A DNA stretch of 64,000 bases from Alphaproteobacteria bacterium (GCA_025360345.1 JANYCJ010000137.1:768-64767); one strand, 5' to 3'; positions 3,001-60,221 are shown, counted from the first letter of the stretch. The notes: generated by a model from the letters alone, not told the origin. Made by a program: numbers and translations.

Positions 3001-3323
3001 GCCACCTGCTTAAAAATTTTCTTCAGCTTAACGGCCCATTCGCCGGCGACTACGGGGTCGGTGGTGCGCTGGGCCATTTCATACTGGCCGATGCCCGCGT
3101 CAGAGGTTTGCGAGACCAGCTTGATCCCCTGCTGCTCCGCCAGCTGCGCTACGCGGCGCTGGAAATTTTCAATGTCGGGGCCGGTGCGCTCGACCTTCTG
3201 GCCGTTTTTAAAGAGGTAATATTCCAGTTCGGGGCCGAAATAGAGATATACACCCTGCTCACGCAGCCAGGACACCATATGGCGGGTCACTGCCTGATTC
3301 TGACGTGTGGCTTCTTCGGACAT
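1..3323 (-). CDS. Large multidomain protein, 3' end cut by the window edge (at least 1107 codons). It has an N-terminal glutamine-synthetase-like catalytic (ATP-dependent amide ligase) domain, central degenerate W-x-R-D/N repeats and a C-terminal GNAT-like acetyltransferase domain.
   Basis: Absent from the ORF track because no stop codon lies inside the window. Hand translation from the ATG at 3323..3321 stays open down to position 3. The N-terminus (MSEEATRQNQ...YFGPELEYYLF...DAGIGQYEM...RPKITPSAYGNGFHVHMGIY...RYEVRHGGMDAHPDLVMMANVAS) follows the order of the glutamine synthetase catalytic motifs. The C-terminus (...AELGYIAVAPAHRGHSLSEKIVNAL...) resembles GNAT motif A. The plus-strand ORFs listed here (e.g. 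24..1382) have antisense-artefact composition. Confidence 0.75.
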   Translation of the reverse strand, partial: MSEEATRQNQAVTRHMVSWLREQGVYLYFGPELEYYLFKNGQKVERTGPDIENFQRRVAQLAEQQGIKLVSQTSDAGIGQYEMAQRTTDPVVAGEWAVKLKKIFKQVAQEQGLVVNLRPKITPSAYGNGFHVHMGIYNQDISQYINANTSIADGRVTVTPPASANLLVDQYGNLNEFARDVEQGLIRVLDETQVFFLPSDNALTRNFGASHSDYASKLLEARAEKGQYAVRIVGENGSKRYEVRHGGMDAHPDLVMMANVASVVLATERSKGITYVSPFSQPAPGQPFWAPATGSASPAPRSIPLGGGTRLVQGEIEQASVHAYLNQRLLLAQDLPRLIGRSTFNRLAGQMLLNPDDAFVSPVNREAPDEYALAALRTTTSWDTINRVLHAQKQQLALKFVRISGDKQKNNMVLSFRDEAEREKFVKRELGPYLLETLSTQTTTFHGAIDPSGNYTPGKRADLAAGEQPCLILDAAKTAGYLEIRSKSLSAPWLRTEFERFLSRRESYESWAAIQYNGAATQLQHHAEKMIGADAPAPRPVTVPQAPLEPQPQARTASQASILAELQNHRDWSRDRDGNYYIPAGSLNLQPLGVIENPGLLRTPSYVFVTSGTTLHQALGEAMAQWRSEERAAQDQAAQDGRINPATLSDVYQELAGLPDWHRDAQGRYFRNLTEFTPQQVQTMRRVNGDVIVASTFAFIEPNSTLDRVVSESVQNRQRILAGNIDTMLPRAASEVNWQRDQRTHSWHVRASSLPDDIRDTLLAEGNNVMLQEDGRLVVNEGSRLDTMINESGLARVAANALLAESARNPKWIRNSDGYRIPRAELLEPEQGRLKNAGAVISSGYIFVPAEAPAHAMIAEAASRRMASAARAEQRAAAAQKQETQAALARTCQDIAVHPAWKQNARNQYFAERSAFTPKQLEAMQGATDTFLVADTYVHVVASAPAAAPVQAATNDIGEGYSIRVCEPGAVVDALPQALRLLAAESTVEMRSVEQEMLKARRVAVVYKGNEVVGIGAIKRSRPDYEGKIAQRSGFTFPADVAELGYIAVAPAHRGHSLSEKIVNALAEEYPGPIFSTTADAAMKHTLEQSGFSGRGNSWQGRTSTLT

Positions 3324-3599
3324 GGCTGTTACATGGCTTTTGCACTCACTCAGGCCATTATATCTAAATAGAGCGCAGGCAATGTTAAGGTATTGTTAAC
3401 CTCGTTTTCATATTTAAGTCAGCACAGTCATTTTTCCATTTAATTATATCAACAACTTATCTACACGCTTGATTTCAGGCCTGCTCAGCGCAGTGGTTAT
3501 TATTACAGGTAGGGTTACTATTAGCCCGGTCAGCCCTTAGTGAAGGGGCGGGCCCGTATTGGCAACGGGACGTGTATATTCCCTTCTAAATATTGCCGC

Positions 3600-36203: not shown

Positions 36204-36622
36204 GCACCCGCCATAATGGTCACGGCATCGCACAGCCAATAGGTGGCGATGCGTTGGACAGTTTCATGGAAAACCGGAGTTTCCAGAGGCTTTACATGGA
36301 ACGCACTCGCACCTGCGCGGTAGGAATTAAGGATGTCGTTAGGATTGGTGGAGGTGGTAAGCACCACTAGCGGCACAAGATTGAGCTGCGGATGGTTCTT
36401 GAATTTTTTGATAAGGCTCATGCCTCCTTCGCCCGGGATGTTGAGGTCCAGAAGTACGAAGGCGGCTTTTTCGTTATTGGCCTCTAGCCAGCGGCAGGCC
36501 GCTTCGGTGTCGGTCAGGTGTACCACGTTATTTTTTAGGCCAAGCTTTTTCAGCCCGTGGCAAATCATATCGAAATCTTCTTCATTATCCTCGACCACCA
36601 GTAACTTTAGATCCCTAAGCAT
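36200..36622 (-). CDS. Single-domain response regulator (phytochrome-associated, Rcp-like)
   Basis: 140 aa with the REC motifs LLVVEDNEEDF…LLDLNIPGEGG…VVLTTS…HVKP. The gene overlaps bphP by 8 nt. Confidence 0.9.
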   Translation of the reverse strand: MLRDLKLLVVEDNEEDFDMICHGLKKLGLKNNVVHLTDTEAACRWLEANNEKAAFVLLDLNIPGEGGMSLIKKFKNHPQLNLVPLVVLTTSTNPNDILNSYRAGASAFHVKPLETPVFHETVQRIATYWLCDAVTIMAGA

Positions 36623-38882
36623 GAGAGTTCTCCGAGTTAAGAGTGAAGTAAAATACCGTGCCTATTCCGCTTTGCGGAGTTTCCACCCAGATGCGACCAT
36701 TATGCTGTTCAACGATTTTCTTAACGATGGCTAAGCCTACTCCACTGCCGCCGCCGAACTGGTCTTTGGCGTGCAAGCGCTTAAAAATAGAAAAAATGGC
36801 AGAGCGATTTTCCGGTGCTATGCCGATGCCGTTATCGGATACGAAGTAGGCATTTTTAGCCATGTCGAACCCTATGTCAATCACAGGTATTTCTTTGTTA
36901 TATTTCACAGCATTACCGATTATGTTCAACCATAATTCACGCAACCGCTGGGGATTTCCTTTTGCAGGCGGCAGCGAGTTCATCATACGGATTTCAGGCT
37001 TTAGTTCCGCGCGGCTGGCGCGAAGGATGTCTATGGATTCTTCTACGAGCTCCCGCATGTCAACTGGTTCGGGGATGAAGCTGCCGCGCCCCAACCGTGA
37101 GAAATGCAGCAGTGACTCAATCAGCGAGTCCATGCGTTTTGTGAGGCGCAGCAGGCTCTCGCTACGTTTTTCGGATTCTTCATCCTGACGCTGCGTAGCA
37201 TCTTCTTTCAGGTAATGGGCATAATGGTAAATGCCACGCAGGGGCTCGCGCAGGTCGTGGGAGGTAACATAGGCGAAAGCATCCAGCTCCTCATTACTGG
37301 CGGCAAGTTCGCGGTTAAGGCGCGAGACATTTTCGCTGGTGGCCACCACCACTTCCATAATAGCAAGGCGAAGGCGGCGGGCAGCCTCGACTTCAAGGGC
37401 TTTCCACGGCAAGGAGTGGCCGCGCAGCTTTTCCTGCCAGAGGGCGAAGGAGGAGCGCGGCATTAGCCGCTCGCCGCCGGGGCTGTCCACCACTTTTTTG
37501 CTGTAAGGGTCACCGGCCCAATTCACAGTTTGAACCACTTCACCACGGAACCATAAAATGAGGCGGTCATTACTGCGGGAAATGGGCACGGCTAAAAGGC
37601 CGCTGGCGGTGTCTTTGCAGATAGACGCAGCAGGCAGGCGCTCTGAAAGGGCATGGGTATGAAGGATTTCGGTGCCTAGCGGGGCGGTGCTAAATGATTG
37701 CTTCACCCATTCGGCAATCGCTTGCAACATGCCCTGATTGGGTACTGCACCCTGGGTGTGCCATTTGCCGTTTTGCAGCAGTGCCACGCCGTCTGCCTCC
37801 ATAAAGCCTGACAGGCCCAAATTGATAAGTTCGGGCAGTTCACGGCCTTCGGCGAGCATTTGCTCCATCAGCCCCTGAGCCGATTCTTCAAGACGGGCGC
37901 GATAGCCGGCGAATTCGTTTTGCTCTATCGCTGAAAGTTGCAATGAGGCAGTTTGAGCCAGAAGTTCGCACACGGCACGCAGCGGCCAGGGAATGATTTT
38001 GGGAGAGTAATGATGGCAGGCGACAAGGCCCCAGAGCTTTCCCTCCACAACGATGGAAAGGGTAAAGGCCATTTCCACGCCCATGTTTTTCAAATAGTCC
38101 GTGTACATGACACTTGCCCCGCGCAGAAAGCTGTATGTCATGTCCAGCGGCTTTTGGGTGATAGGGTTTACCAGCGGTATGATTTCCGACTGGATATAGG
38201 AGACGGAGGGAAGCGGGCGCACCCAGATTTTGCGGAAGATGTCGCGGGCAGGCTGGGGAATATCTTCCGAGGGGTAGTGCAGGCCCAGATAGGGGTGCAG
38301 GTCTTCACGCTTGGCCTCGGCATAGACCTCACCGCTTAAATCTTCCATGAAGCGGTATATCATGACACGGTCGAGGCCGGTGAGCTTGCGGATTTCGGTA
38401 GACAAGGTGCGGCAAAACTCCCTGAGACCGGGAGACTTCTGGAGCCGGGCAATAATTCGGTTTGCGTCGCTATAGGCCTGTTCACGGCTTATGGACATGG
38501 GGATGTCGGCGTCTTCACATTCCATGATAAGCACACCGTTATGCAGGTGCAGAAGAGCATCGAGCTTTTTATCATGCGGCGTGAAGCTGAAAAGGTAGCG
38601 TGGATTGGTTTCGATACTGTCTTCTTCCAACGCTGTGCGCAGGAGCGTGGCATTTTCCTCGCCCACGAGCGCCATGAGGGGCTGGCCCACCACATCGCCG
38701 GGGGCTTTATTCAGCCATTCCTGAGCATTGTCGCTAACCTGAATAACGGTGAGGTTCTGCGGGTTCAGGGCAAGCAGGCAGCCAAAGGGCTGGATGCAGC
38801 CCGGGATATGCACGGGCTCACGGTCGCAGTTGGTAAGGGTAACTTCGTTGTTCTTCAGGGAATAAGCGTAGGAGAAACCCAT
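36615..38882 (-). CDS. bphP: Bacteriophytochrome histidine kinase
   Basis: 755 aa. The N-terminus TLTNCDREPVHIPGCIQPFGCLL carries the biliverdin-binding Cys context. PAS-GAF-PHY follows, then the H-box YVTSHDLREPLRGI and an HATPase domain (DNGIGI, GGSGVGLAI). Confidence 0.93.
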   Translation of the reverse strand: MGFSYAYSLKNNEVTLTNCDREPVHIPGCIQPFGCLLALNPQNLTVIQVSDNAQEWLNKAPGDVVGQPLMALVGEENATLLRTALEEDSIETNPRYLFSFTPHDKKLDALLHLHNGVLIMECEDADIPMSISREQAYSDANRIIARLQKSPGLREFCRTLSTEIRKLTGLDRVMIYRFMEDLSGEVYAEAKREDLHPYLGLHYPSEDIPQPARDIFRKIWVRPLPSVSYIQSEIIPLVNPITQKPLDMTYSFLRGASVMYTDYLKNMGVEMAFTLSIVVEGKLWGLVACHHYSPKIIPWPLRAVCELLAQTASLQLSAIEQNEFAGYRARLEESAQGLMEQMLAEGRELPELINLGLSGFMEADGVALLQNGKWHTQGAVPNQGMLQAIAEWVKQSFSTAPLGTEILHTHALSERLPAASICKDTASGLLAVPISRSNDRLILWFRGEVVQTVNWAGDPYSKKVVDSPGGERLMPRSSFALWQEKLRGHSLPWKALEVEAARRLRLAIMEVVVATSENVSRLNRELAASNEELDAFAYVTSHDLREPLRGIYHYAHYLKEDATQRQDEESEKRSESLLRLTKRMDSLIESLLHFSRLGRGSFIPEPVDMRELVEESIDILRASRAELKPEIRMMNSLPPAKGNPQRLRELWLNIIGNAVKYNKEIPVIDIGFDMAKNAYFVSDNGIGIAPENRSAIFSIFKRLHAKDQFGGGSGVGLAIVKKIVEQHNGRIWVETPQSGIGTVFYFTLNSENSHA

Positions 38883-40092: not shown

Positions 40093-40530
40093 ATGAAAAC
40101 AACACGCCCCGCACTTTTCCTATTCGGACTGATGTGTACCGCCCTGCCCTTGCGCGGCCAAGCGGCGGACTCCAAGGGTTTGTACCAGACACTTTATTAC
40201 ATCCCCTGTTCGACCTATGCCGAAGACCGCAAAGAGCCGGAAAATTCCGGCAAGAACGCGGTGGACAAGATTTACGTTAGCGGATGGCTCTCAGGATATA
40301 ATTACCTGACGCCCAACACGTTTGACATTGCGCCCGACCATAATGTGGACAAGGCGCTGGAGTGGCTCGACGGTTTTTGTGCAAAGAAGCCGCAGAGCAG
40401 CCTTGAGGCAGGGCTGCTGCAGCTAACGGATGAGCTATACCCCAACCGCATGAAGGAAGCGCCCTCTGCTAAGCCGAAAGCGCCGGAAACGCCTTTCGAC
40501 GATATCCATTTCCACATTCAGGATAAATAA
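40093..40530 (+). CDS. Hypothetical secreted protein
   Basis: The signal peptide MKTTRPALFLFGLMCTALPLRGQA is followed by a soluble domain of about 120 aa with 2 Cys. No family was recognised. Confidence 0.55.
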   Translation: MKTTRPALFLFGLMCTALPLRGQAADSKGLYQTLYYIPCSTYAEDRKEPENSGKNAVDKIYVSGWLSGYNYLTPNTFDIAPDHNVDKALEWLDGFCAKKPQSSLEAGLLQLTDELYPNRMKEAPSAKPKAPETPFDDIHFHIQDK

Positions 40531-41342
40531 CGACGCTTTGCTTTGAGGGCCGCGGTGAGACAGAAAAACACCACGATACCCAGCAACGGCAATGACAGCG
40601 ACCAGAGCGCGCTGTGCATGATATAAGCCGTGTCACCATAGGCGATATAGGCGATAGTGAAGGCGGTGCCGGACCAGAGCAGCGCTTCGCTGCGAAGGCG
40701 GAAAGCAGCGGTAAAGCCAGCGGCAATGGCGGCGACATAAGCGATTTCAGCCCAAGAGCCGCGAACGAGATTGAACAAGGTGGCATAGAACAGGCAGCAG
40801 CCAAGCACATATGCAGCGGGGCTTAAAGCATATGCCACGGTGCGGCGCAGGCCGTGGCCCACCAGCAGAAGGGACACGCCAAGGCAAAGCAGTACGGCGC
40901 GCTCTTCACCGCCCAGCATATGCAGCAGGATGAATGCGAAGCCATACAGAAAAATAATGGGGGCGGTGAGGATGAATGGAATGCGATATTGCATGTAAAC
41001 GGCGGTTTCCTGCGCGGCCATGAAAAGCATGACAGCGAGGCTTGCGGCGCTGCCTAAAGCGAGCTGGGGGAAGATTTGCGCGACGAGGACATAGAGTCCC
41101 ACCGCCTCAAGAAAGGCGGCGGCGGCGAACAGGCAGCAGCCCGGAAGGCGGGTGGGCAGGGCGGCAGACTGCCATGCCATCATGGCCAGCACATGGAACA
41201 GCATACCGCCACCCAGCGTTGCGATGATGCGTGTGTTGCCACCCATGTTCTGCCAGAAGGCAGCAAAGAACGCGGCTAAGCCGACATAGCCCAGAAAGGC
41301 GGCGAAATAGAGAATCGCTTCTGCTTTGGTGATACGGGTCAT
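40518..41342 (-). CDS. Polytopic inner-membrane protein of unknown function
   Basis: 274 aa, almost entirely hydrophobic helices (about 8). It overlaps the upstream gene by 4 nt. Confidence 0.6.
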   Translation of the reverse strand: MTRITKAEAILYFAAFLGYVGLAAFFAAFWQNMGGNTRIIATLGGGMLFHVLAMMAWQSAALPTRLPGCCLFAAAAFLEAVGLYVLVAQIFPQLALGSAASLAVMLFMAAQETAVYMQYRIPFILTAPIIFLYGFAFILLHMLGGEERAVLLCLGVSLLLVGHGLRRTVAYALSPAAYVLGCCLFYATLFNLVRGSWAEIAYVAAIAAGFTAAFRLRSEALLWSGTAFTIAYIAYGDTAYIMHSALWSLSLPLLGIVVFFCLTAALKAKRRYLS

Positions 41343-47481: not shown

Positions 47482-48321
47482 TTAGCGGGTCAGCACGGCG
47501 TCGGTCGCGGGGGTTTCGTTTTTCTCGAGAATATTGGTAAGGCTGAAGCGGGTTTCACGCGTGGCGAAGCTGCGGGTCTGGGTTTCGGACATGTTTGGTT
47601 CGGCGTTCAGGGCGGGTGCAGGCTTTTCCGGCGCGGGCGCGGCAAGAGCGGGCTCCGGCGCGGGGGCGTTTTCTTTTTCAAAATAATGCCCCTTGAGCAA
47701 TTTGCCGTAGCTTTGGGCAAGTTTGCTGGTGAGGTGCGGGAAGTTCACGCCCATGGTGGTGCCAAACAGGCCGAGCACGGTTGCCGAGCCGATGATGGCC
47801 GCAGCGCTGCCCGCCTTGAAGCCGAGCATGGCCACGCCTACGGCAGTGATGGGATTTATGGCAATGAGCGCCCCGAAGGTTGCGAATATAGCAGCTGCAG
47901 CCAGTGAGACTTTCCAGTTCAGCAGCGGGGATTTTTTAGCCGGGGCTGCCTGAGTAGGCTCTGCAGCGGCGGGGGATTTGCCTTCGCGCTTTTCTTTTTC
48001 TTCAATGGTGGCCTGTGCCACGCCGGCATTTGCCCCGACATCGGCGCCGATGGCCATGCCGAGCCATGCTGCGGCACCGCCGAAGAGGGCGGCATTCGAG
48101 GCAACGGCGATGGCGCTGGGCAAGGCCACCGAAGCCGCACCCGAAACCCCAAGCGCGCCCAGCAAGGGCGGAAGGAACGAGGCAATTACACCCCCTGCCA
48201 TACCGAAACCACCGAGCACGGTTGCGCCCGCCAGAAAACCTGCCGTGCGGCGCGACCACGTTTTCTTGTGGAGCGTCTCGTATAGCTGGTCGGACTTCTG
48301 GTTTTCCTCAGTGGTTGCCAT
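47482..48321 (-). CDS. Hypothetical Gly/Ala-rich membrane protein
   Basis: 279 aa. Several Gly-zipper-like helices are present (…GFLAGATVLGGFGMAGGVIASFL…, …AAAAIFATFGALIAI…). The C-terminus is Pro/Ala-rich. No family was recognised. Confidence 0.55.
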   Translation of the reverse strand: MATTEENQKSDQLYETLHKKTWSRRTAGFLAGATVLGGFGMAGGVIASFLPPLLGALGVSGAASVALPSAIAVASNAALFGGAAAWLGMAIGADVGANAGVAQATIEEKEKREGKSPAAAEPTQAAPAKKSPLLNWKVSLAAAAIFATFGALIAINPITAVGVAMLGFKAGSAAAIIGSATVLGLFGTTMGVNFPHLTSKLAQSYGKLLKGHYFEKENAPAPEPALAAPAPEKPAPALNAEPNMSETQTRSFATRETRFSLTNILEKNETPATDAVLTR

Positions 48322-49024: not shown

Positions 49025-49831
49025 ATGAACGAAGTGCTGGAGGATGTATTCGAGCGCACCCGCAGGCTGCTGTATTACGGCATCGGGGGGTGGTTGCTTG
49101 GACTGGTCATGATGCTCCGGCTGCCTGACGCGGACGATATTGACCCGCGACTGATACAAGAGCCGATACAGGGGCCCACATCGCGCGGTGAAATCCATTT
49201 CAAATATGAGGGCCAGGAAATCCGGGTGGTTCCTGTGCTGAGCTATGAAATTAACGGGCTGGTCGTGTCGCATAACGATCCGGGGGAATGGTACCGTTTC
49301 GATCTGATCCATGACAGCCAATCCATAAACACACGCGATATCTGCCTGATCTGGGGGGACAACCTGAAGACCAATGCGTTTCACCATGTCAGTTTTTCAA
49401 ACGATGACCGGATGTGCAACTGGAGCTACGGCTCCAGCGTGCGCATGATAAAGGATAATGAAATCTCCAATAATCACCTGATTACGGCGAACGACGATAT
49501 ACGCGAGCAAATCGCCAATCTTCATGTGGGTGACCAGGTGGCGATCAAAGGCAGGCTGGCTTATTATGCCGAGGAACGCTGGGGACTGGCGAGCCTCCGC
49601 AGCAGCAGCCTGACACGCGATGATACGGGCGTGGATTCCGGCGAAATCATTTTCGTTGAGTCACTGACCGTGCTTCATTCCTATAATTACTTCTGGGCAT
49701 TACTGCACCAGATCGGATACTGGATTTGCGTGGGCATGATTTCGCTCAGGGCGGCGGTTTTCGCGGTGCCGAAACAGGGGCTGCACCTGCCGGGTTTCGT
49801 GAAGCGCATTATTGCAATGTATAAGCCTTAG
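49025..49831 (+). CDS. Hypothetical protein with N- and C-terminal membrane helices
   Basis: 268 aa. The N-terminal helix is GIGGWLLGLVMML and the C-terminal helix is IGYWICVGMISL. The central soluble domain has conserved-looking His/Cys/Asp residues. No family was recognised. Confidence 0.55.
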   Translation: MNEVLEDVFERTRRLLYYGIGGWLLGLVMMLRLPDADDIDPRLIQEPIQGPTSRGEIHFKYEGQEIRVVPVLSYEINGLVVSHNDPGEWYRFDLIHDSQSINTRDICLIWGDNLKTNAFHHVSFSNDDRMCNWSYGSSVRMIKDNEISNNHLITANDDIREQIANLHVGDQVAIKGRLAYYAEERWGLASLRSSSLTRDDTGVDSGEIIFVESLTVLHSYNYFWALLHQIGYWICVGMISLRAAVFAVPKQGLHLPGFVKRIIAMYKP

Positions 49832-54220: not shown

Positions 54221-55294
54221 ATGGCAGACGGCGAACAGGACCAGGAACAAAAAACAGAACAACCTACACAAAAGCGGCTTGATGAGGCGCTTAAAAAAGG
54301 CAACGTGCCGGTTTCCAAAGAGGTGGCGAATTTCTTCGTGCTTTCGGCGCTGGCCGCCATTGTGGCGTGGTGCACACCGAACATGCTGCGCCAGACCGGG
54401 CGATTACTGACCCCTCTTCTGGCCGATGCCGACAGCCTGCCGGTGGATGCGAACGGGATTGGGAAACTGCTGCTGCATATCGTGCTGGGGGGCATGGGCA
54501 TTGTGGCAGTGCCGATGCTGATGGGCATTGTGGCGGTGCTGGCGGCGAGCTTCCTGCAAAACGGTTTCGTGGTTTCTTCCGAACCGGTGATGCCGAAATT
54601 CTCGCGGTTGTCCCCGCTGGAAGGTATTAAGCGGATGTTTTCGATGCGCTCGGTGATTGAGCTGGTCAAGAGCCTAGCCAAGCTTGGCATCGTGGGATAT
54701 GTGGCGTTTTTAGCGGTGTACCCGGAGCTTACAAACATCAAGCGGCTGCCTAACAGCAATACCGAGGCGATGCTGATGTTCCTGCTGATGCTGGCCAGCC
54801 GCATGACGCTGGGCGTGGCCATCGCCATGTTCATCATCGCCATTCTGGACACGCTGTACCAGCGCTTCCAGTATTTCAAATCCCTGCGCATGACGCGGCA
54901 GGAAATCAAGGATGAATACAAACAGGCCGAAGGCGACCCGATGGTAAAGCAGCGCCTGAGGCGGTTGCGCATGGAGAGAGCCAAGAACCGGATGATGAGC
55001 AACGTGCCCAAGTCCGACGTGGTGATTACCAACCCGACCCATTTCGCGGTGGCGCTGCAATATGACTCGGCCAGTATGAAGGCACCAAAGGTGGTGGCCA
55101 AGGGGCAAGACCTGATCGCGCTTAAAATCCGTGAGCTGGCCAAGGCCAACGATGTGCCCATCGTGGAAAACCCGCCGCTGGCGCGGGCGCTGTTCGACGC
55201 GGCGGACATTGACGAGGAAATTCCCACCGCGCAATACGAGGCGGTGGCGAAGGTTATCTCTTATGTGTACCAGCTCAAGGGCAGGCGGCGTTAG
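54221..55294 (+). CDS. flhB: Flagellar export switch protein FlhB
   Basis: 357 aa. The N-terminus is EKTEQPTQKRLDEALKKGNVPVSKE. The autocleavage motif is VVITNPTHFAVAL. Confidence 0.95.
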   Translation: MADGEQDQEQKTEQPTQKRLDEALKKGNVPVSKEVANFFVLSALAAIVAWCTPNMLRQTGRLLTPLLADADSLPVDANGIGKLLLHIVLGGMGIVAVPMLMGIVAVLAASFLQNGFVVSSEPVMPKFSRLSPLEGIKRMFSMRSVIELVKSLAKLGIVGYVAFLAVYPELTNIKRLPNSNTEAMLMFLLMLASRMTLGVAIAMFIIAILDTLYQRFQYFKSLRMTRQEIKDEYKQAEGDPMVKQRLRRLRMERAKNRMMSNVPKSDVVITNPTHFAVALQYDSASMKAPKVVAKGQDLIALKIRELAKANDVPIVENPPLARALFDAADIDEEIPTAQYEAVAKVISYVYQLKGRRR

Positions 55295-55369
55295 GGGCCA
55301 AAAAAACTGTTGTTTATTTTCCCTAAATTCACCATGTTACGATAGCTTCCAGTCTATTTTCCGGTTCCC

Positions 55370-56395
55370 ATGGCTATTCGATACAGCGATTTCAGCAAAC
55401 GCAATGAAAAGACGGCGGATTTCGTCAGCCGCAAGTATAACCCCAGTCTTGTGAAGCTGGTGGCGCTGTTTTTCCTCGCGCTGGCCTGCGGCATCGTCAT
55501 CACCGGGTTTTTGCTGCCGCCATTCTATTTCGTGGTGATGCTCACCGTCGTCATGGGCGGGCTGGGAACCTATGTGATCGTGGAAATCCAGCGCACGCGC
55601 GACCTAGTGGTGGCCACCGAATACCAGAACGCCATGTTCGCCTCGGCGCTGGGCTATAACAGCCGCTTTACCATGATTATCAAGCGCGAAGGCACGATTA
55701 TTTACATGGATAACGGGCTGCAGAAATTATTTCCCGACCTGATGAAGGAGCGGCAGTTTTCCATGTCAAACCTGCTGAAAATGGCGAAGGTGGGAGCAAC
55801 AGAGCGCGAGAAAATTCTTGATGTTGTGCAGCGCGGCAACCCGGACAAGATGATGTTCGACATGCGTGCCGGGGACGGGCGCATCCACCCCATCGTGCTT
55901 TCGGTGCAGCCGATCATGCGGCCCAGCGGGTTTTTGCTGTTACGCGGGCGTGACTATGTAGAAGACCGCAACGGCGCGCCGATTCCGAAGACGTCGCAGG
56001 CGCCCATGACCAACCCGCTACTGTCTAAATCCAGCATCGCCATGTTCGCGCACATCATGGACCGCATGGGCATGGGGCTGTATATGATCGATATGGGCGG
56101 CAATATCCTTTATGTGAACCCGGTGCTGGAGCAGTGGCTTTCCTTCGGGCAGGGCGAAATTACCAGCGGCAAATTCACCATGCGCGACGTGGTGCACGGG
56201 GTGAGCGTGGAAGACGCGCTGAACCCCGGCGATTTTGAAGGCGAGAATTCGTTGCTAAAAAAGGAAGGCGGGCTTATCAAGGCTTACATCAACCAGAAGA
56301 TCATTTATGGTGACAACAATAAGCCGCTCGGCTGTGTGGCGCTGATTACCAATATGATCGAGACGGATTCAGAATCTAAAAAGAAATTATGGTAG
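55370..56395 (+). CDS. Membrane-anchored PAS-like sensory protein; possible N-terminal part of a split CckA-like kinase
   Basis: 341 aa. Two N-terminal helices are present (LVALFFLALACGIVITGFLL and FYFVVMLTVVMGGLGTYVIV), followed by two PAS-like segments. Its TAG is followed 1 nt later by the ATG of the kinase ORF. Confidence 0.7.
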   Translation: MAIRYSDFSKRNEKTADFVSRKYNPSLVKLVALFFLALACGIVITGFLLPPFYFVVMLTVVMGGLGTYVIVEIQRTRDLVVATEYQNAMFASALGYNSRFTMIIKREGTIIYMDNGLQKLFPDLMKERQFSMSNLLKMAKVGATEREKILDVVQRGNPDKMMFDMRAGDGRIHPIVLSVQPIMRPSGFLLLRGRDYVEDRNGAPIPKTSQAPMTNPLLSKSSIAMFAHIMDRMGMGLYMIDMGGNILYVNPVLEQWLSFGQGEITSGKFTMRDVVHGVSVEDALNPGDFEGENSLLKKEGGLIKAYINQKIIYGDNNKPLGCVALITNMIETDSESKKKLW

Positions 56396-56396
56396 C

Positions 56397-57980
56397 ATGA
56401 ACGCACATTCCCCCGACCCCGCCTCCCAGCTGACGCTGGCCAGTTTTATCGAAAATTCGCCCATCGCCATTGTGGGGCTAGATACGGACGGCACCATCGT
56501 GCAGGGCAACCGCGCCTTCCACTCGCTGACACAGCACACGCTGGCCTCCAAGCTTCCGATGCCGTTCAACGACCTGCTTACGCCAGCGAAGAAAAGCGAG
56601 GCCGAAGCGCTGCTGAAGCGGGCGCAGGCCGGGGATATCCCCTCTGAAGCCCAGCACCTGGAACTGACGCTTCCTAACGGGGTGGAGCTGATCGTTTCAG
56701 CCCTGCTCAGCCCATTTAATTCGCAAGCCGCGGGCGGGCCGCTGATTATCCACCTGATTGACATCACCGAGCAGAAAAACCTTGAGCTACGGTTTGCACA
56801 TTCACAAAAAATGCAGGCTGTGGGCCAGCTTGCGGGCGGTGTGGCGCATGATTTCAATAACCTGCTCACCGCCATGATCGGGTTTTGCGACCTGCTGCTA
56901 ATGCGCCACCCGGCGGGCGACCAGTCGTTTGCCGATATCATGCAGATCAAGCAAAACGCCAACCGGGCGGCTAACTTAGTGCGGCAGTTGCTGGCTTTCT
57001 CACGCCGGCAGACGTTGCAGCCGAAGGTGCTGGACCTGACGGACGTGCTGGCCGAGCTTTCAAACCTGATCCGCCGCCTGATCGGGGAAAATATTGAGCT
57101 GAAGATGGTGCATGGGCGCGAGATCGGCCATGTGCGCGCCGACCAGGGGCAGCTGGAGCAGGTGCTAATCAACCTCGCCGTGAACGCGCGCGACGCGATG
57201 ACGGGGGGCGGTTCGCTTTCCATCCGCACCAGCAAGACGCTGATTGACCGGGCGCACCCCCTGCCCCGCGACCTGATGGCGCCGGCGGAGGAAGATTCCA
57301 CGATTCCCAACGGCGAGTATGTGCTGGTGGAAGTGGTGGATTCGGGCTGTGGGATTCCCAAGAATATCCTGCCAAAGATTTTTGAGCCGTTTTTCTCCAC
57401 CAAGGCGGTGGGCAGCGGCACGGGGCTTGGGCTTTCCACCGTATATGGCATCATCAAGCAGTCCGGCGGATATGTGTATGTAGCCAGCAAGGAAAACGAG
57501 GGCACGAATTTCAGCTTGTTCTTCCCCAGCGTAGGCCAGCAGGAAGCAGCCACGGCGGTGGCGGCGGAAGCAGCGGAAAAGACGGAGAGCCATATTTCGG
57601 GCGATTTGACCGGCAAAGGGACGATTTTGCTGGTGGAAGACGAAACGCCGGTGCGGATTTTTGCCGCGCGGGCATTGCGCAACAAAGGCTACACTATCCT
57701 TGAAGCCGATTGCGGGGAGACCGGGATTGAGCTGATGGAAAAGCACGGGCAGGAAGTGGAAGTGATCGTGACGGATGTCATCATGCCGGGCATGAACGGG
57801 CCGACGATGATTGACAAAATCACGCCGCAATACCCCAATGTGAAGGTGATTTTCATCTCGGGCTATGCGGAAGATATTTTCGTGAATAACTATGGCACCG
57901 AGCGCAGTTTCAATTTCCTTGCCAAGCCGTTTACGCTCAAGCAGCTAGCCAGCAAAATTAAAGAAGTGCTGGGCAAATAG
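56397..57980 (+). CDS. Soluble PAS-HisKA-HATPase-REC hybrid kinase, CckA-like
   Basis: 527 aa. H-box: VGQLAGGVAHDFNNLLTAMIGF. N/G boxes: NLAVNARDAM, DSGCGI and GTGLGLSTV. REC: ILLVEDETPVR…TDVIMPGMNG…AKP. There is no membrane segment of its own. Confidence 0.85.
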   Translation: MNAHSPDPASQLTLASFIENSPIAIVGLDTDGTIVQGNRAFHSLTQHTLASKLPMPFNDLLTPAKKSEAEALLKRAQAGDIPSEAQHLELTLPNGVELIVSALLSPFNSQAAGGPLIIHLIDITEQKNLELRFAHSQKMQAVGQLAGGVAHDFNNLLTAMIGFCDLLLMRHPAGDQSFADIMQIKQNANRAANLVRQLLAFSRRQTLQPKVLDLTDVLAELSNLIRRLIGENIELKMVHGREIGHVRADQGQLEQVLINLAVNARDAMTGGGSLSIRTSKTLIDRAHPLPRDLMAPAEEDSTIPNGEYVLVEVVDSGCGIPKNILPKIFEPFFSTKAVGSGTGLGLSTVYGIIKQSGGYVYVASKENEGTNFSLFFPSVGQQEAATAVAAEAAEKTESHISGDLTGKGTILLVEDETPVRIFAARALRNKGYTILEADCGETGIELMEKHGQEVEVIVTDVIMPGMNGPTMIDKITPQYPNVKVIFISGYAEDIFVNNYGTERSFNFLAKPFTLKQLASKIKEVLGK

Positions 57981-57998
57981 CCGCGGGGCGGCTTTTTT
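57980..57998 (+). terminator. Rho-independent terminator after the kinase gene
   Basis: GCCGC-GGG-GCGGC followed by TTTTTT. The stem begins in the stop codon. Confidence 0.7.
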
Positions 57999-58010
57999 AA
58001 AGGATAGCAT

Positions 58011-58649
58011 GTGGATTGGTTTGCGCCGGTGGATTTGTATTGCGAGCGGCTGGGTCCGGCATTCTGGGCAGAGCCGGTCAATGCGCTGAGCAATATTGCC
58101 TTCCTGATTGCTTCGGGAATCTTATTTGGTCAAAGCCGCGCGCGGCCAGCGGATGGCGAGGTGCGTGCATTGAGCGCGCTGGTGGGCGTGGTGGGCATCG
58201 GTAGCTTCCTGTTCCACAGTTTTGCAAACCCGCTTGCGGAATTAGCGGATGTACTGCCCATCGCGCTCTTCGTGCTCACTTATATATGGGTGTCGTTTCG
58301 CCGTTTCCTCGGCTGGGGCACGGGCAAGACGCTACTTGCGATGGGGGTTTTCCTTGGGCTTGGGCCCGTGATGGCGCGGCTGCCCGAAGGGTGGCAGATG
58401 AACGGTTCGGTTTCCTACCTGCCCTGCCTGGGAATGCTGCTATTCCAATGGACGCAGATACGGCGCGCCCAGCCGCTGGCTGCGCGGCGGGTGTTAGTGG
58501 CAGCACTGACTTTTGTTTTGTCGCTTACTTTGCGCAGCCTCGATATGCAGCTCTGCTCACTGTTTCCCCTAGGCACGCATTTCCTGTGGCATTGTTTCAA
58601 CGGGCTGGTGCTGTATCTGCTGGTGCTGGCAGTGATGCGCAAGGATTAA
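58011..58649 (+). CDS. Ceramidase-family (alkaline ceramidase-like) membrane protein
   Basis: 212 aa with a GTG start. The N-terminus DLYCERLGPAFWAEPVNALSNIAFLIA and seven hydrophobic helices with conserved His residues (FHSF, HFLWH) match the bacterial ceramidase-domain pattern as I recall it. Confidence 0.6.
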   Translation: MDWFAPVDLYCERLGPAFWAEPVNALSNIAFLIASGILFGQSRARPADGEVRALSALVGVVGIGSFLFHSFANPLAELADVLPIALFVLTYIWVSFRRFLGWGTGKTLLAMGVFLGLGPVMARLPEGWQMNGSVSYLPCLGMLLFQWTQIRRAQPLAARRVLVAALTFVLSLTLRSLDMQLCSLFPLGTHFLWHCFNGLVLYLLVLAVMRKD

Positions 58650-59777: not shown

Positions 59778-60221
59778 ATGGGTAAAATTCTTAAGCCTGA
59801 AGACCTTGAGCGGTTCAAAAAAGACGTGGACGGGCCTTCAAATGAAGCGGCGCGGCGCGTTGCAAGGGAAAAGCTCGATGAGCGCTTTCCTTTACGCGAA
59901 GGACAGGCGGAAGCTGTTTTACCTAATGGAACGCGGGCACGGATGCGCCCACATGCCACTGATCCTTATGATATTGATGTTGATGCGACGAAAAAAGGCG
60001 GCGACCCGGTGGATATGCGCAAGGCTACCGGCAGGAAACCCAATGATGACGGCAGCGTGCGGATTGACCCGCGCCATGTGATCGACACGCTGGGCGAACT
60101 GGGCGGGGTGGATCTGAATCCGCCCCTGCCCGCTCCCGGCTCGGGAAGGGGAAGTGGTGGCACGCCCATTTTTTCGGAGCGGACGGACATCCTTCGCGGC
60201 GGTGGCAAGCACATCACCTGA
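59778..60221 (+). CDS. Hypothetical basic/Gly-Pro-rich protein downstream of recA
   Basis: 147-aa ORF starting 16 nt after the recA stop. No family was recognised, and it is not RecX-like by eye. Confidence 0.45.
   Translation: MGKILKPEDLERFKKDVDGPSNEAARRVAREKLDERFPLREGQAEAVLPNGTRARMRPHATDPYDIDVDATKKGGDPVDMRKATGRKPNDDGSVRIDPRHVIDTLGELGGVDLNPPLPAPGSGRGSGGTPIFSERTDILRGGGKHIT

Follow-up and report, generated by a model that had tools for sequence, protein, structure and literature searches.

The window analysed here is a stretch of 64,000 nucleotides (nt) from Alphaproteobacteria bacterium (GCA_025360345.1, JANYCJ010000137.1:768-64767), with positions counted from its first letter. Its plus strand carries, at 55,370 to 57,980, two adjoining open reading frames (ORFs) that correspond to the two parts of one CckA-type hybrid histidine kinase, a membrane-anchored half, cckA-N (ORF1), and a soluble kinase half, cckA-C (ORF2). 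In the alphaproteobacterial cell cycle CckA is the master kinase/phosphatase; it is essential and belongs to the CckA-ChpT-CtrA phosphorelay. The locus is laid out as follows.

55370..56395, + strand: cckA-N (ORF1), 341 amino acids (aa), 38.2 kDa, the membrane-anchored tandem-PAS half.
56378..56399, + strand: the junction AAAAAGAAATTATGG-TAG-C-ATG, with the ORF1 stop at 56393-56395, a spacer C at 56396 and the ORF2 start at 56397-56399.
56397..57980, + strand: cckA-C (ORF2), 527 aa, 56.9 kDa, the soluble PAS-DHp-CA-REC half.
57979..58003, + strand: an intrinsic-terminator-like element, hairpin AGCCGCGGGGCGGCT at 57979-57993 followed by TTTTTAAAGG, overlapping the ORF2 stop codon.
54221..55294, + strand: flhB, the last of the row flgB-flgC-fliE-fliQ-fliR-flhB, ending 75 nt 5′ of ORF1.

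The 3′ end of ORF1 reads ...AAA AAG AAA TTA TGG TAG. The frame of ORF2 is +1 relative to that of ORF1 and is open from 56358, directly after a TGA at 56355-56357, extending 35 nt upstream of the ORF1 stop. Fusion of the two ORFs needs the loss of one base anywhere in 56358-56392. The longest homopolymer at the junction is A5 (56378-56382). The junction recurs identically in an NCBI contig of a metagenome-assembled genome (MAG; GCA_043763375.1, JAYULS010000141.1), and a Logan assembly of run SRR23617308, made separately, has it too.

The position of flhB before cckA is conserved, as is the order fliR-flhB-cckA, relatives with a fused cckA included. No terminator was found in the 75-nt gap between flhB and ORF1, and a sigma-70 promoter scan gave no match there. 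Since the gene order is conserved and the gap lacks a terminator, co-transcription of the pair with the flagellar export genes is possible. The sole convincing terminator-like hairpin of the plus strand is the one at 57979-57993 with its TTTTT, directly 3′ of ORF2. Another hairpin, at 56426-56439, was considered as a terminator and rejected: it has only 5 base pairs, lies within coding sequence, and by eye has no corresponding inverted repeat in the closest relative (L003).

The ORF1 product has these parts, where linker, second PAS fold and short helix are those of an AlphaFold2 model.

55448..55585, + strand: transmembrane hairpin, aa 27-48 and 51-72 with a Pro-Pro turn at 49-50; the second helix runs on to aa 94.
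55667..55954, + strand: PAS fold 1, aa 100-195; AlphaFold2 strands 100-105, 109-113, 159-166, 172-182 and 188-195; predicted local distance difference test (pLDDT) about 80-89.
ORF1 aa 199-214: disordered linker.
56027..56353, + strand: PAS fold 2, aa 220-328.
ORF1 aa 334-340: short C-terminal helix.
56369..56392, + strand: C-terminal tail ...SESKKKLW, with a nearly invariant KKxLW end; Trp341 is invariant in the alignment of 44 homologues.

A single hydrophobic stretch spans aa ~27-72 (Kyte-Doolittle 19-residue mean above 1.6 for centres 33-65), which the model, built from 44 homologues at a mean pLDDT of 73, renders as helices 27-48 and 51-94. PAS fold 1 has no Pfam or NCBIfam match. PAS fold 2 is weakly matched by profile libraries at aa 221-327, with weak Pfam PAS/PAS_8 hits and a TIGR00229 sensory_box match at aa 221-324 (25 bits, E 1.6e-5). 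The top Foldseek matches of the model in PDB are all tandem-PAS proteins (ARNT/HIF, DosP, MmoS, and a Brucella LOV-PAS construct). A PDB sequence search with the ORF1 profile gave generic PAS matches only (best E 1.3e-4), so no specific ligand can be inferred. The ORF1 alignment holds 29 invariant columns, the terminal Trp among them, and the N-terminus MAIRY(S/T)D is conserved in the clade.

The domains of the ORF2 product follow from Pfam matches.

56439..56777, + strand: PAS domain, aa 15-127 (PAS_4 aa 19-127, PAS aa 15-96).
56823..57011, + strand: DHp (HisKA), aa 143-205, with the phospho-acceptor His151 at 56847-56849.
57141..57527, + strand: CA (HATPase_c), aa 249-377.
57624..57959, + strand: receiver (Response_reg), aa 410-521, with the phospho-acceptor Asp460 at 57774-57776.

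The H-box QLAGGVAHDFNNLLTA, which holds His151, is identical to that of Caulobacter CckA (PDB 5IDJ). ORF2 matches the Caulobacter CckA DHp-CA structure 5IDJ at E 1.8e-71 and also the CA domain structure 5IDM, and its receiver matches 6TNE, deposited as 'Histidine kinase', at E 2e-23. The catalytic residues are all intact. Cyclic di-GMP (c-di-GMP) is bound in Caulobacter CckA at a site that includes G318, R374, Y514, K518 and W523 (PMC5026420). Alignment to 5IDJ/5IDM predicts that four of the five are kept in ORF2 (Gly147 for G318, Arg203 for R374, Tyr350 for Y514 and Lys354 for K518), with Tyr359 at the W523 position. By its place next to DHp, the ORF2 PAS would be the equivalent of Caulobacter PAS-B. 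No hydrophobic segment was found in ORF2, where the 19-residue Kyte-Doolittle mean reaches at most 1.15.

Much of this had been proposed in an earlier reading of the same DNA (the original prediction). Its ORF coordinates, stop TAG at 56393..56395, ATG at 56397 and frame open from 56358 are correct, as is its placing of the pair 75 nt after flhB with the first strong terminator only past ORF2; its remark that removal of a single base in the overlap would fuse the frames holds for 56358-56392. It described ORF1 as two transmembrane helices plus two PAS-like segments, with which hydrophobicity, AlphaFold2 and Foldseek agree, and ORF2 as PAS-HisKA-HATPase-REC with a CckA-type H-box and no membrane anchor, in agreement with Pfam, the 5IDJ alignment and hydrophobicity.

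The two products align with successive parts of a single CckA. ORF2 covers positions 343-867 of the 868 in the Brucella-type CckA model NF046020, at about 607 bits (606.7), and positions 205-676 of the 678 in the Caulobacter-type model NF046026, at about 494 bits (493.8). ORF1 aa 230-278 match NF046020 positions 225-273 (25.1 bits), colinear with the ORF2 match. Against the fused 862-aa homologue P0062, ORF1 aligns to residues 4-321 (30% identity, E 8e-52) and ORF2 to residues 342-860 (65% identity), and from these alignments ORF1 plus ORF2 equal a CckA cut in an inter-PAS linker. As aligned, the cut falls in the ~20-residue linker from PAS2 to PAS3, with a Lys-rich tract and an aromatic residue directly before it. 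Neither ORF reaches the curated equivalog cut-off of 1000 bits set for NF046020/NF046026, and the alignment still runs end to end and colinearly. Anchor and kinase on one polypeptide are a feature of the CckA family that is absent here, where the anchor and two PAS folds are on ORF1. Judged by sequence, the catalytic half is unmistakably CckA, and the pair as a whole is a conventional membrane hybrid kinase of CckA type in a two-subunit variant. The colinearity with NF046020 and the alignments to fused ~850-aa homologues thus bear out the earlier view that the two ORFs equal one membrane hybrid kinase. The orthologue alignment that was recommended at that time has now been run: distant relatives have a single ORF, the junction falls at the PAS2-PAS3 linker, and ORF1 is related to the N-terminus of CckA.

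The fission of cckA is genuine, and it is probably an old event that selection has kept in a large clade of uncultured Alphaproteobacteria. When 5.8 billion proteins were searched with ORF1, 46 relatives came back, with identities down to 39%, and each is a stand-alone protein: 42 measure 334-350 aa, three fall below that (226-324 aa), and one reaches 382 aa owing to a longer called N-terminus. A profile run against 1.84 billion representative proteins matched 141 of them at E ≤ 1e-30. The best 150 profile matches comprise ~85 stand-alone proteins of 320-350 aa, ~45 of ~200 aa that also stand alone, and ~13 fused proteins of 612-895 aa in which the matching region is the N-terminus. The closest ~100 homologues of ORF2 (at least 69% identity) have 507-544 aa, and fused ~850-aa forms are found only at 69% identity or less.

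Junctions were read in the DNA of 32 species-level MAG loci and 24 metagenome loci, with frames and spacing taken per locus. All 37 distinct junctions are split, and all in the same linker; ORF2 lies directly after ORF1 in every locus where the contig continues. A single uninterrupted ORF of 735-869 aa is found in distant relatives (L029, L030, L032, L033, L034, L049, L054), and in a rough neighbour-joining tree of the kinase part the split forms are a clade nested among fused forms. The ratio of nonsynonymous to synonymous substitution rates (dN/dS), computed with the two closest relatives for which DNA was available, comes to 0.13-0.19 in ORF1 and 0.05-0.07 in ORF2, values for which dS is near saturation; the direction is clear, and by this measure both halves are under purifying selection. 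Submitters label the carriers of the split 'Rickettsiales bacterium' or 'Alphaproteobacteria bacterium'. No cultured organism was found among them, all source-named homologues coming from metagenomes or MAGs.

One protein from a 53.7-kb NCBI contig, P0221 (729 aa), is a single-chain TM-PAS1-PAS-DHp-CA-REC form (TM, transmembrane) that lacks PAS2. It is 78% identical to ORF2 and is nested inside the split clade in the neighbour-joining tree; it is apparently a secondary re-fusion through a deletion across PAS2 and the junction.

The sequence at the junction takes many forms.

7-nt overlap NTGGTAG: several lineages; the start codon is formed by the final Leu-codon base plus the first two bases of the Trp codon; the commonest arrangement.
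TGGTGA with a GTG start: L010 and L018.
TAATG or TGATG: several lineages, L003 included.
TAG-C-ATG: the window.
TAA-T-ATG: L035.
Gaps of 3-13 nt: several lineages.
Gaps of 27 and 32 nt: two lineages.
Gap of 115 nt: L031/L048.

Across the 37 junctions the ORF2 frame is +2 relative to ORF1 in 19, +1 in nine, and the same frame behind a single stop in nine. The ORF1 stop is TAG in 20, TAA in ten and TGA in seven; ORF2 starts with ATG (22), GTG (9) or TTG (4). TAG is probably prevalent because GTAG doubles as codons 2-3 of an overlapping ORF2 start (ATG-GTA-G..). Of 35 junctions, 32 have a stop-to-start spacing of -7 to +13 nt. Even the three closest relatives differ, with a +1 event needed for fusion in the window (TAGCATG) and L035 (TAATATG) and a -1 event in L003 (TAATG, +2). 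Since the frame relation varies among homologues, no single recoding mechanism is conserved.

Most of the clade has ORF1 ending in ...K-K-x-L-W-stop, with K337, K338 and L340 kept in at least 90%. The terminal Leu codon may be TTA, TTG, CTA, CTG, CTT or CTC, while Leu-Trp is kept, and this synonymous variation places selection at the protein level. In fused relatives the linker is variable here (P0062 ...DVKKNFESS..., L030 ...KAQKKSL...). The basic-aromatic motif is thus an old one that came to form the C-terminus.

Of the four explanations that the original prediction offered for the junction, the evidence favours a genuine split sensor/kinase pair with termination-reinitiation coupling. A sequencing or assembly error, by which a miscounted base would have split a single 868-aa cckA, might be suspected because the source is a MAG, an A-rich tract precedes the junction and a 1-nt deletion fuses the frames. 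But the longest A run is only five, an NCBI MAG contig and a separate Logan assembly have the identical junction, the conserved ...KKKLW-stop sits in the ORF1 frame, and the gene is split at the same place in 37 of 37 junctions and 46 of 46 ORF1 homologues; a homopolymer error is refuted by these counts and has next to no probability. The same counts refute a recent frameshift mutation. A decaying cckA pseudogene would have a precedent in the reduced genome of Wolbachia wAlbB (PMC4426382), but it is extremely improbable for a split common to lineages down to 39% (ORF1) and 69% (ORF2) identity, whose halves are both full length, with low dN/dS and intact catalytic residues.

What remains of those proposals is recoding, in which a programmed +1 ribosomal frameshift in 56358-56392 gives fused CckA as the main or essential product. 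The ORF2 frame is indeed open for 35 nt before the ORF1 stop, no Shine-Dalgarno (SD) sequence precedes ORF2, and the C-terminal codons of ORF1 are unusually conserved. That conservation is at the protein level, however, as the Leu codon varies synonymously, and UUA-UGG-UAG-C allows no +1 re-pairing of tRNA-Trp or tRNA-Leu. A known shift motif and an upstream SD-like stimulator are both absent at the window junction, where none of the marks of a prfB-like +1 frameshift (re-pairing, SD stimulator, conserved site and frame) was found. The nearest relatives need different events (-1 in L003, +1 in L035), nine lineages are in frame with a stop codon between the ORFs, and one has a 115-nt spacer. 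The mix of +2, +1 and 0 frames together with that spacer refutes +1 recoding as a conserved mechanism, and for the window we regard it as very improbable.

The anatomy of the junction fits the termination-reinitiation class of gene pairs. Neither ORF1 nor ORF2 of the window is preceded by an SD sequence (GGAG/AGGA-like), while flgC, fliE, fliQ, fliR, flhB and recA are. Averaged over 35 lineages, the anti-SD duplex energy comes to -2.3 kcal/mol at ORF2 starts vs -6.6 at flhB, recA, the ceramidase-like gene (cer) and fliR (Mann-Whitney p 9e-8). Reporter work in E. coli and Haloferax found that termination-reinitiation needs an overlap or a very short gap and is nearly lost at ~20 nt, and gene pairs of this kind are enriched for subunits of heteromeric complexes (PMC10666635).

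A special case is presented by homopolymers in some relatives. In a scan of the 36 nt before each ORF1 stop, eight loci (L010, L015, L018, L021, L023, L026, L039, L046) were found with A9-A10 runs that encode the Lys tract just 5′ of the stop. All eight are in the +2 relation, where one added A fuses ORF1 to ORF2, and in all eight the ORF2 frame is open across the run. The other 29 junctions comprise 11 in the +2 relation, nine +1 and nine in frame (Fisher's exact p 0.003, not corrected for phylogeny). Runs of about nine or more A residues are known slippage sites of RNA polymerase. A slippage-type homopolymer (an A or T run of ~9 or more) is found only in these eight relatives; the window has A5. 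The A9 run with its +2 relation may be the ancestral state after loss of one A from an A10 tract, which would account for the place and manner of the break; alternatively, slippage may be supplying some fused protein there even now. Neither reading applies to the window, with A5 and a +1 relation. In L023, a basal relative, no ATG, GTG or TTG was found in the ORF2 frame between the A9 run and the start of the PAS (3160-3310), and its kinase half seems to need a frame change at the run, unless the assembly miscounted the run. Homopolymer under-calling was considered for the A9 runs of L010, L015, L018, L039 and L046 and rejected, since Leu/Ile-Trp-stop is in the ORF1 frame only as assembled.

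For the coupled pair of the window we propose the following scheme as the most likely one. ORF1 and ORF2 would be co-transcribed, perhaps with the upstream flagellar export genes, up to the hairpin at 57979. Because ORF2 has no SD and starts 1 nt past the ORF1 stop, it would be translated mainly by ribosomes that have just finished ORF1, as the anatomy and the published distance dependence suggest. Such coupled synthesis would make ORF2 protein at a fixed ratio and beside the newly inserted membrane protein. The 38-kDa ORF1 and 57-kDa ORF2 products would assemble non-covalently into a membrane-tethered CckA, to which the fusion homologues, the strict adjacency and the co-conservation point; this is 'Rosetta stone' logic, since the halves are one chain in outgroups and are re-joined in P0221. 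The contact would probably be made by PAS2 and the C-terminal tail on one side and the PAS of ORF2 on the other. By comparison with the Caulobacter protein, ORF2 would hold all that kinase/phosphatase chemistry and phosphorelay require (His151, CA, Asp460 and four of the five c-di-GMP-site residues), and ORF1 would give the membrane tether and the upstream PAS inputs. The tether might even be reversible, with bound kinase active and free kinase inactive or acting as phosphatase, which is speculation.

The division of labour can be compared with published work on Caulobacter CckA, where the cytosolic part is a poor kinase unless densely packed on a membrane, one PAS mediates density activation and polar accumulation, and the PAS adjoining DHp mediates the c-di-GMP switch to phosphatase (PMC4853435). 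By position, the c-di-GMP-responsive PAS and the catalytic core would have stayed on ORF2 here, and the anchor and upstream PAS inputs would be on ORF1.

The two genes could instead be separate and functionally independent, with ORF2 a free cytoplasmic CckA and ORF1, for example, a scaffold or regulator of other partners. Stand-alone ~200-aa TM+PAS1 paralogues do occur away from kinase genes (L027, L056, L058), one lineage has the 115-nt spacer, and in vitro the Caulobacter protein retains catalytic competence when its TM domain is missing (PMC4853435). Yet the kinase activity of that cytosolic protein needs high membrane surface density (PMC4853435), ORF2 is directly 3′ of ORF1 wherever the contig continues, the stop-start spacing is -7 to +13 nt in 32 of 35 junctions, and P0221 was re-fused inside the split clade. 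We consider independence unlikely. Several observations weigh against the scheme of an old, coupled and jointly acting pair. The spacers of 115 nt (L031/L048) and 27-32 nt (two lineages) are of a length at which reinitiation should fail, so coupling is not obligatory. ORF1 starts also lack an SD (mean -2.0 kcal/mol over window positions 55340-55369 and the equivalent in 36 loci), and a weak SD may simply be a property of the locus, not a sign of coupling. Neither chpT nor ctrA was identified in the examined parts of the window. L025 and P0304 fall outside the main split clade in the rough neighbour-joining tree, by which a single or multiple origin of the fission is not settled. Some fused product may also be made in the A9-A10 lineages, to judge from their sequence. 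A joint reading is fairly unlikely, in which the gene was split by loss of 1 nt from a slippery poly-A (Lys-Lys-Lys) tract in the inter-PAS linker, the A9-A10 lineages (eight of 37) still make a fraction of full-length CckA beside the separate halves through an A added by slippage, and the pair of the window is fully independent, coupled and acts in trans. If it were true, the transcripts of the A9-A10 lineages would determine how much kinase is tethered relative to free.

The ~200-aa stand-alone class consists of the TM hairpin and PAS1 only, and is found in L027 (3453-4064), L056 (1935-2546), L058 (737-1360) and L052 (540-1193). One MAG holds both the L027 paralogue and the split pair L016. 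L052 has another two-gene layout, lacking PAS2, in which the TM+PAS1 gene lies 20 nt ahead of a PAS-kinase-REC gene.

The split pair has the domain order of Caulobacter crescentus and Brucella abortus CckA, namely two TM helices, tandem PAS, DHp, CA and REC. It shares with the Caulobacter protein the H-box and, by alignment, the c-di-GMP-site residues G318, R374, Y514 and K518; the W523 position is Tyr. There are three PAS folds in all, as in the longer Brucella-type model. Unlike either protein, it is encoded as two polypeptides, the cut separating the DHp-adjoining PAS from the PAS domains upstream. The literature searched held no account of a conserved fission of CckA; its only split cckA genes are strain-specific frameshifts of Wolbachia, and literature on 'gene fission' together with histidine kinases gave nothing relevant. 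The cckA of Wolbachia wAlbB is in two ORFs through a resequencing-verified 1-nt deletion, with the receiver truncated and its conserved Asp lost, and the split predicted for wMel cckA was ascribed to one base that may have been added in the deposited sequence (PMC4426382). Whereas the wAlbB case concerns one strain with a reduced endosymbiont genome, the cut described here is between domains, leaves the domains intact, and is found in dozens of species under purifying selection.

Two other known systems are similar in part. Coupled overlapping gene pairs (Huber et al., PMC6728339, PMC10666635) are likewise co-directional, with stop and start close together, a downstream gene without SD and an expected heteromer. 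Their commonest overlaps are -4 and -1 nt, in contrast to the 7-nt overlap NTGGTAG that is commonest here and the +1-nt gap of the window, and coupling is a prediction in our case. The tssM1 gene of Citrobacter rodentium has A11 before a premature stop, and transcriptional slippage there gives two length variants that are both required (PMC4256274). The A9-A10 run just before the ORF1 stop in eight relatives is similar, one extra A joining the ORFs. The window differs in having only A5, where a deletion would be needed; and slippage, shown for tssM1, is only predicted in the relatives.

Polar clustering, density-dependent activation and DivL are the inputs of Caulobacter CckA, and it is still debated how the anchor and N-terminal PAS domains control the catalytic core. 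The split clade is a natural experiment on this question, as it implies that sensor inputs can reach the core with no covalent helical linker in between. Its co-evolved fragments are also ready for use in reconstitution, in mapping of interactions and in structural work. Fission of genes is in itself common; here the cut is in an essential, much-studied signalling protein at a mechanistically informative place, and its age and spread mark it as clearly functional. For annotation, where a gene called 'response regulator' or 'ATP-binding protein' in these genomes is preceded by a 'PAS domain-containing protein' or 'hypothetical protein', the latter is the other half of CckA, and pipelines that mark such pairs as frameshifted pseudogenes would be wrong.

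Elsewhere in the window, no tRNA gene or Rfam family was found at the gathering threshold over the whole 64 kb. CtrA-box-like TTAA-N7-TTAA sequences occur only at 3385 and 29320, and none is near the flagellar or cckA genes. A membrane protein of the ceramidase family (PF05875) is encoded between cckA-C and recA (58011-58649, + strand), and the order flhB, cckA-N, cckA-C, ceramidase-like gene, recA is kept in most related loci. About 17 kb upstream lies a bacteriophytochrome histidine kinase gene (36615-38882, - strand; PAS_2-GAF-PHY-HisKA-HATPase_c, 755 aa). Near the flagellar and cckA genes are four ORFs of 147-279 aa for which Pfam gave nothing at E ≤ 1e-5 (47482-48321, - strand; 49025-49831, + strand; 40518-41342, - strand; 59778-60221, + strand). 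One of them, the 147-aa ORF that follows recA, is a called gene in the MAG's annotation too.

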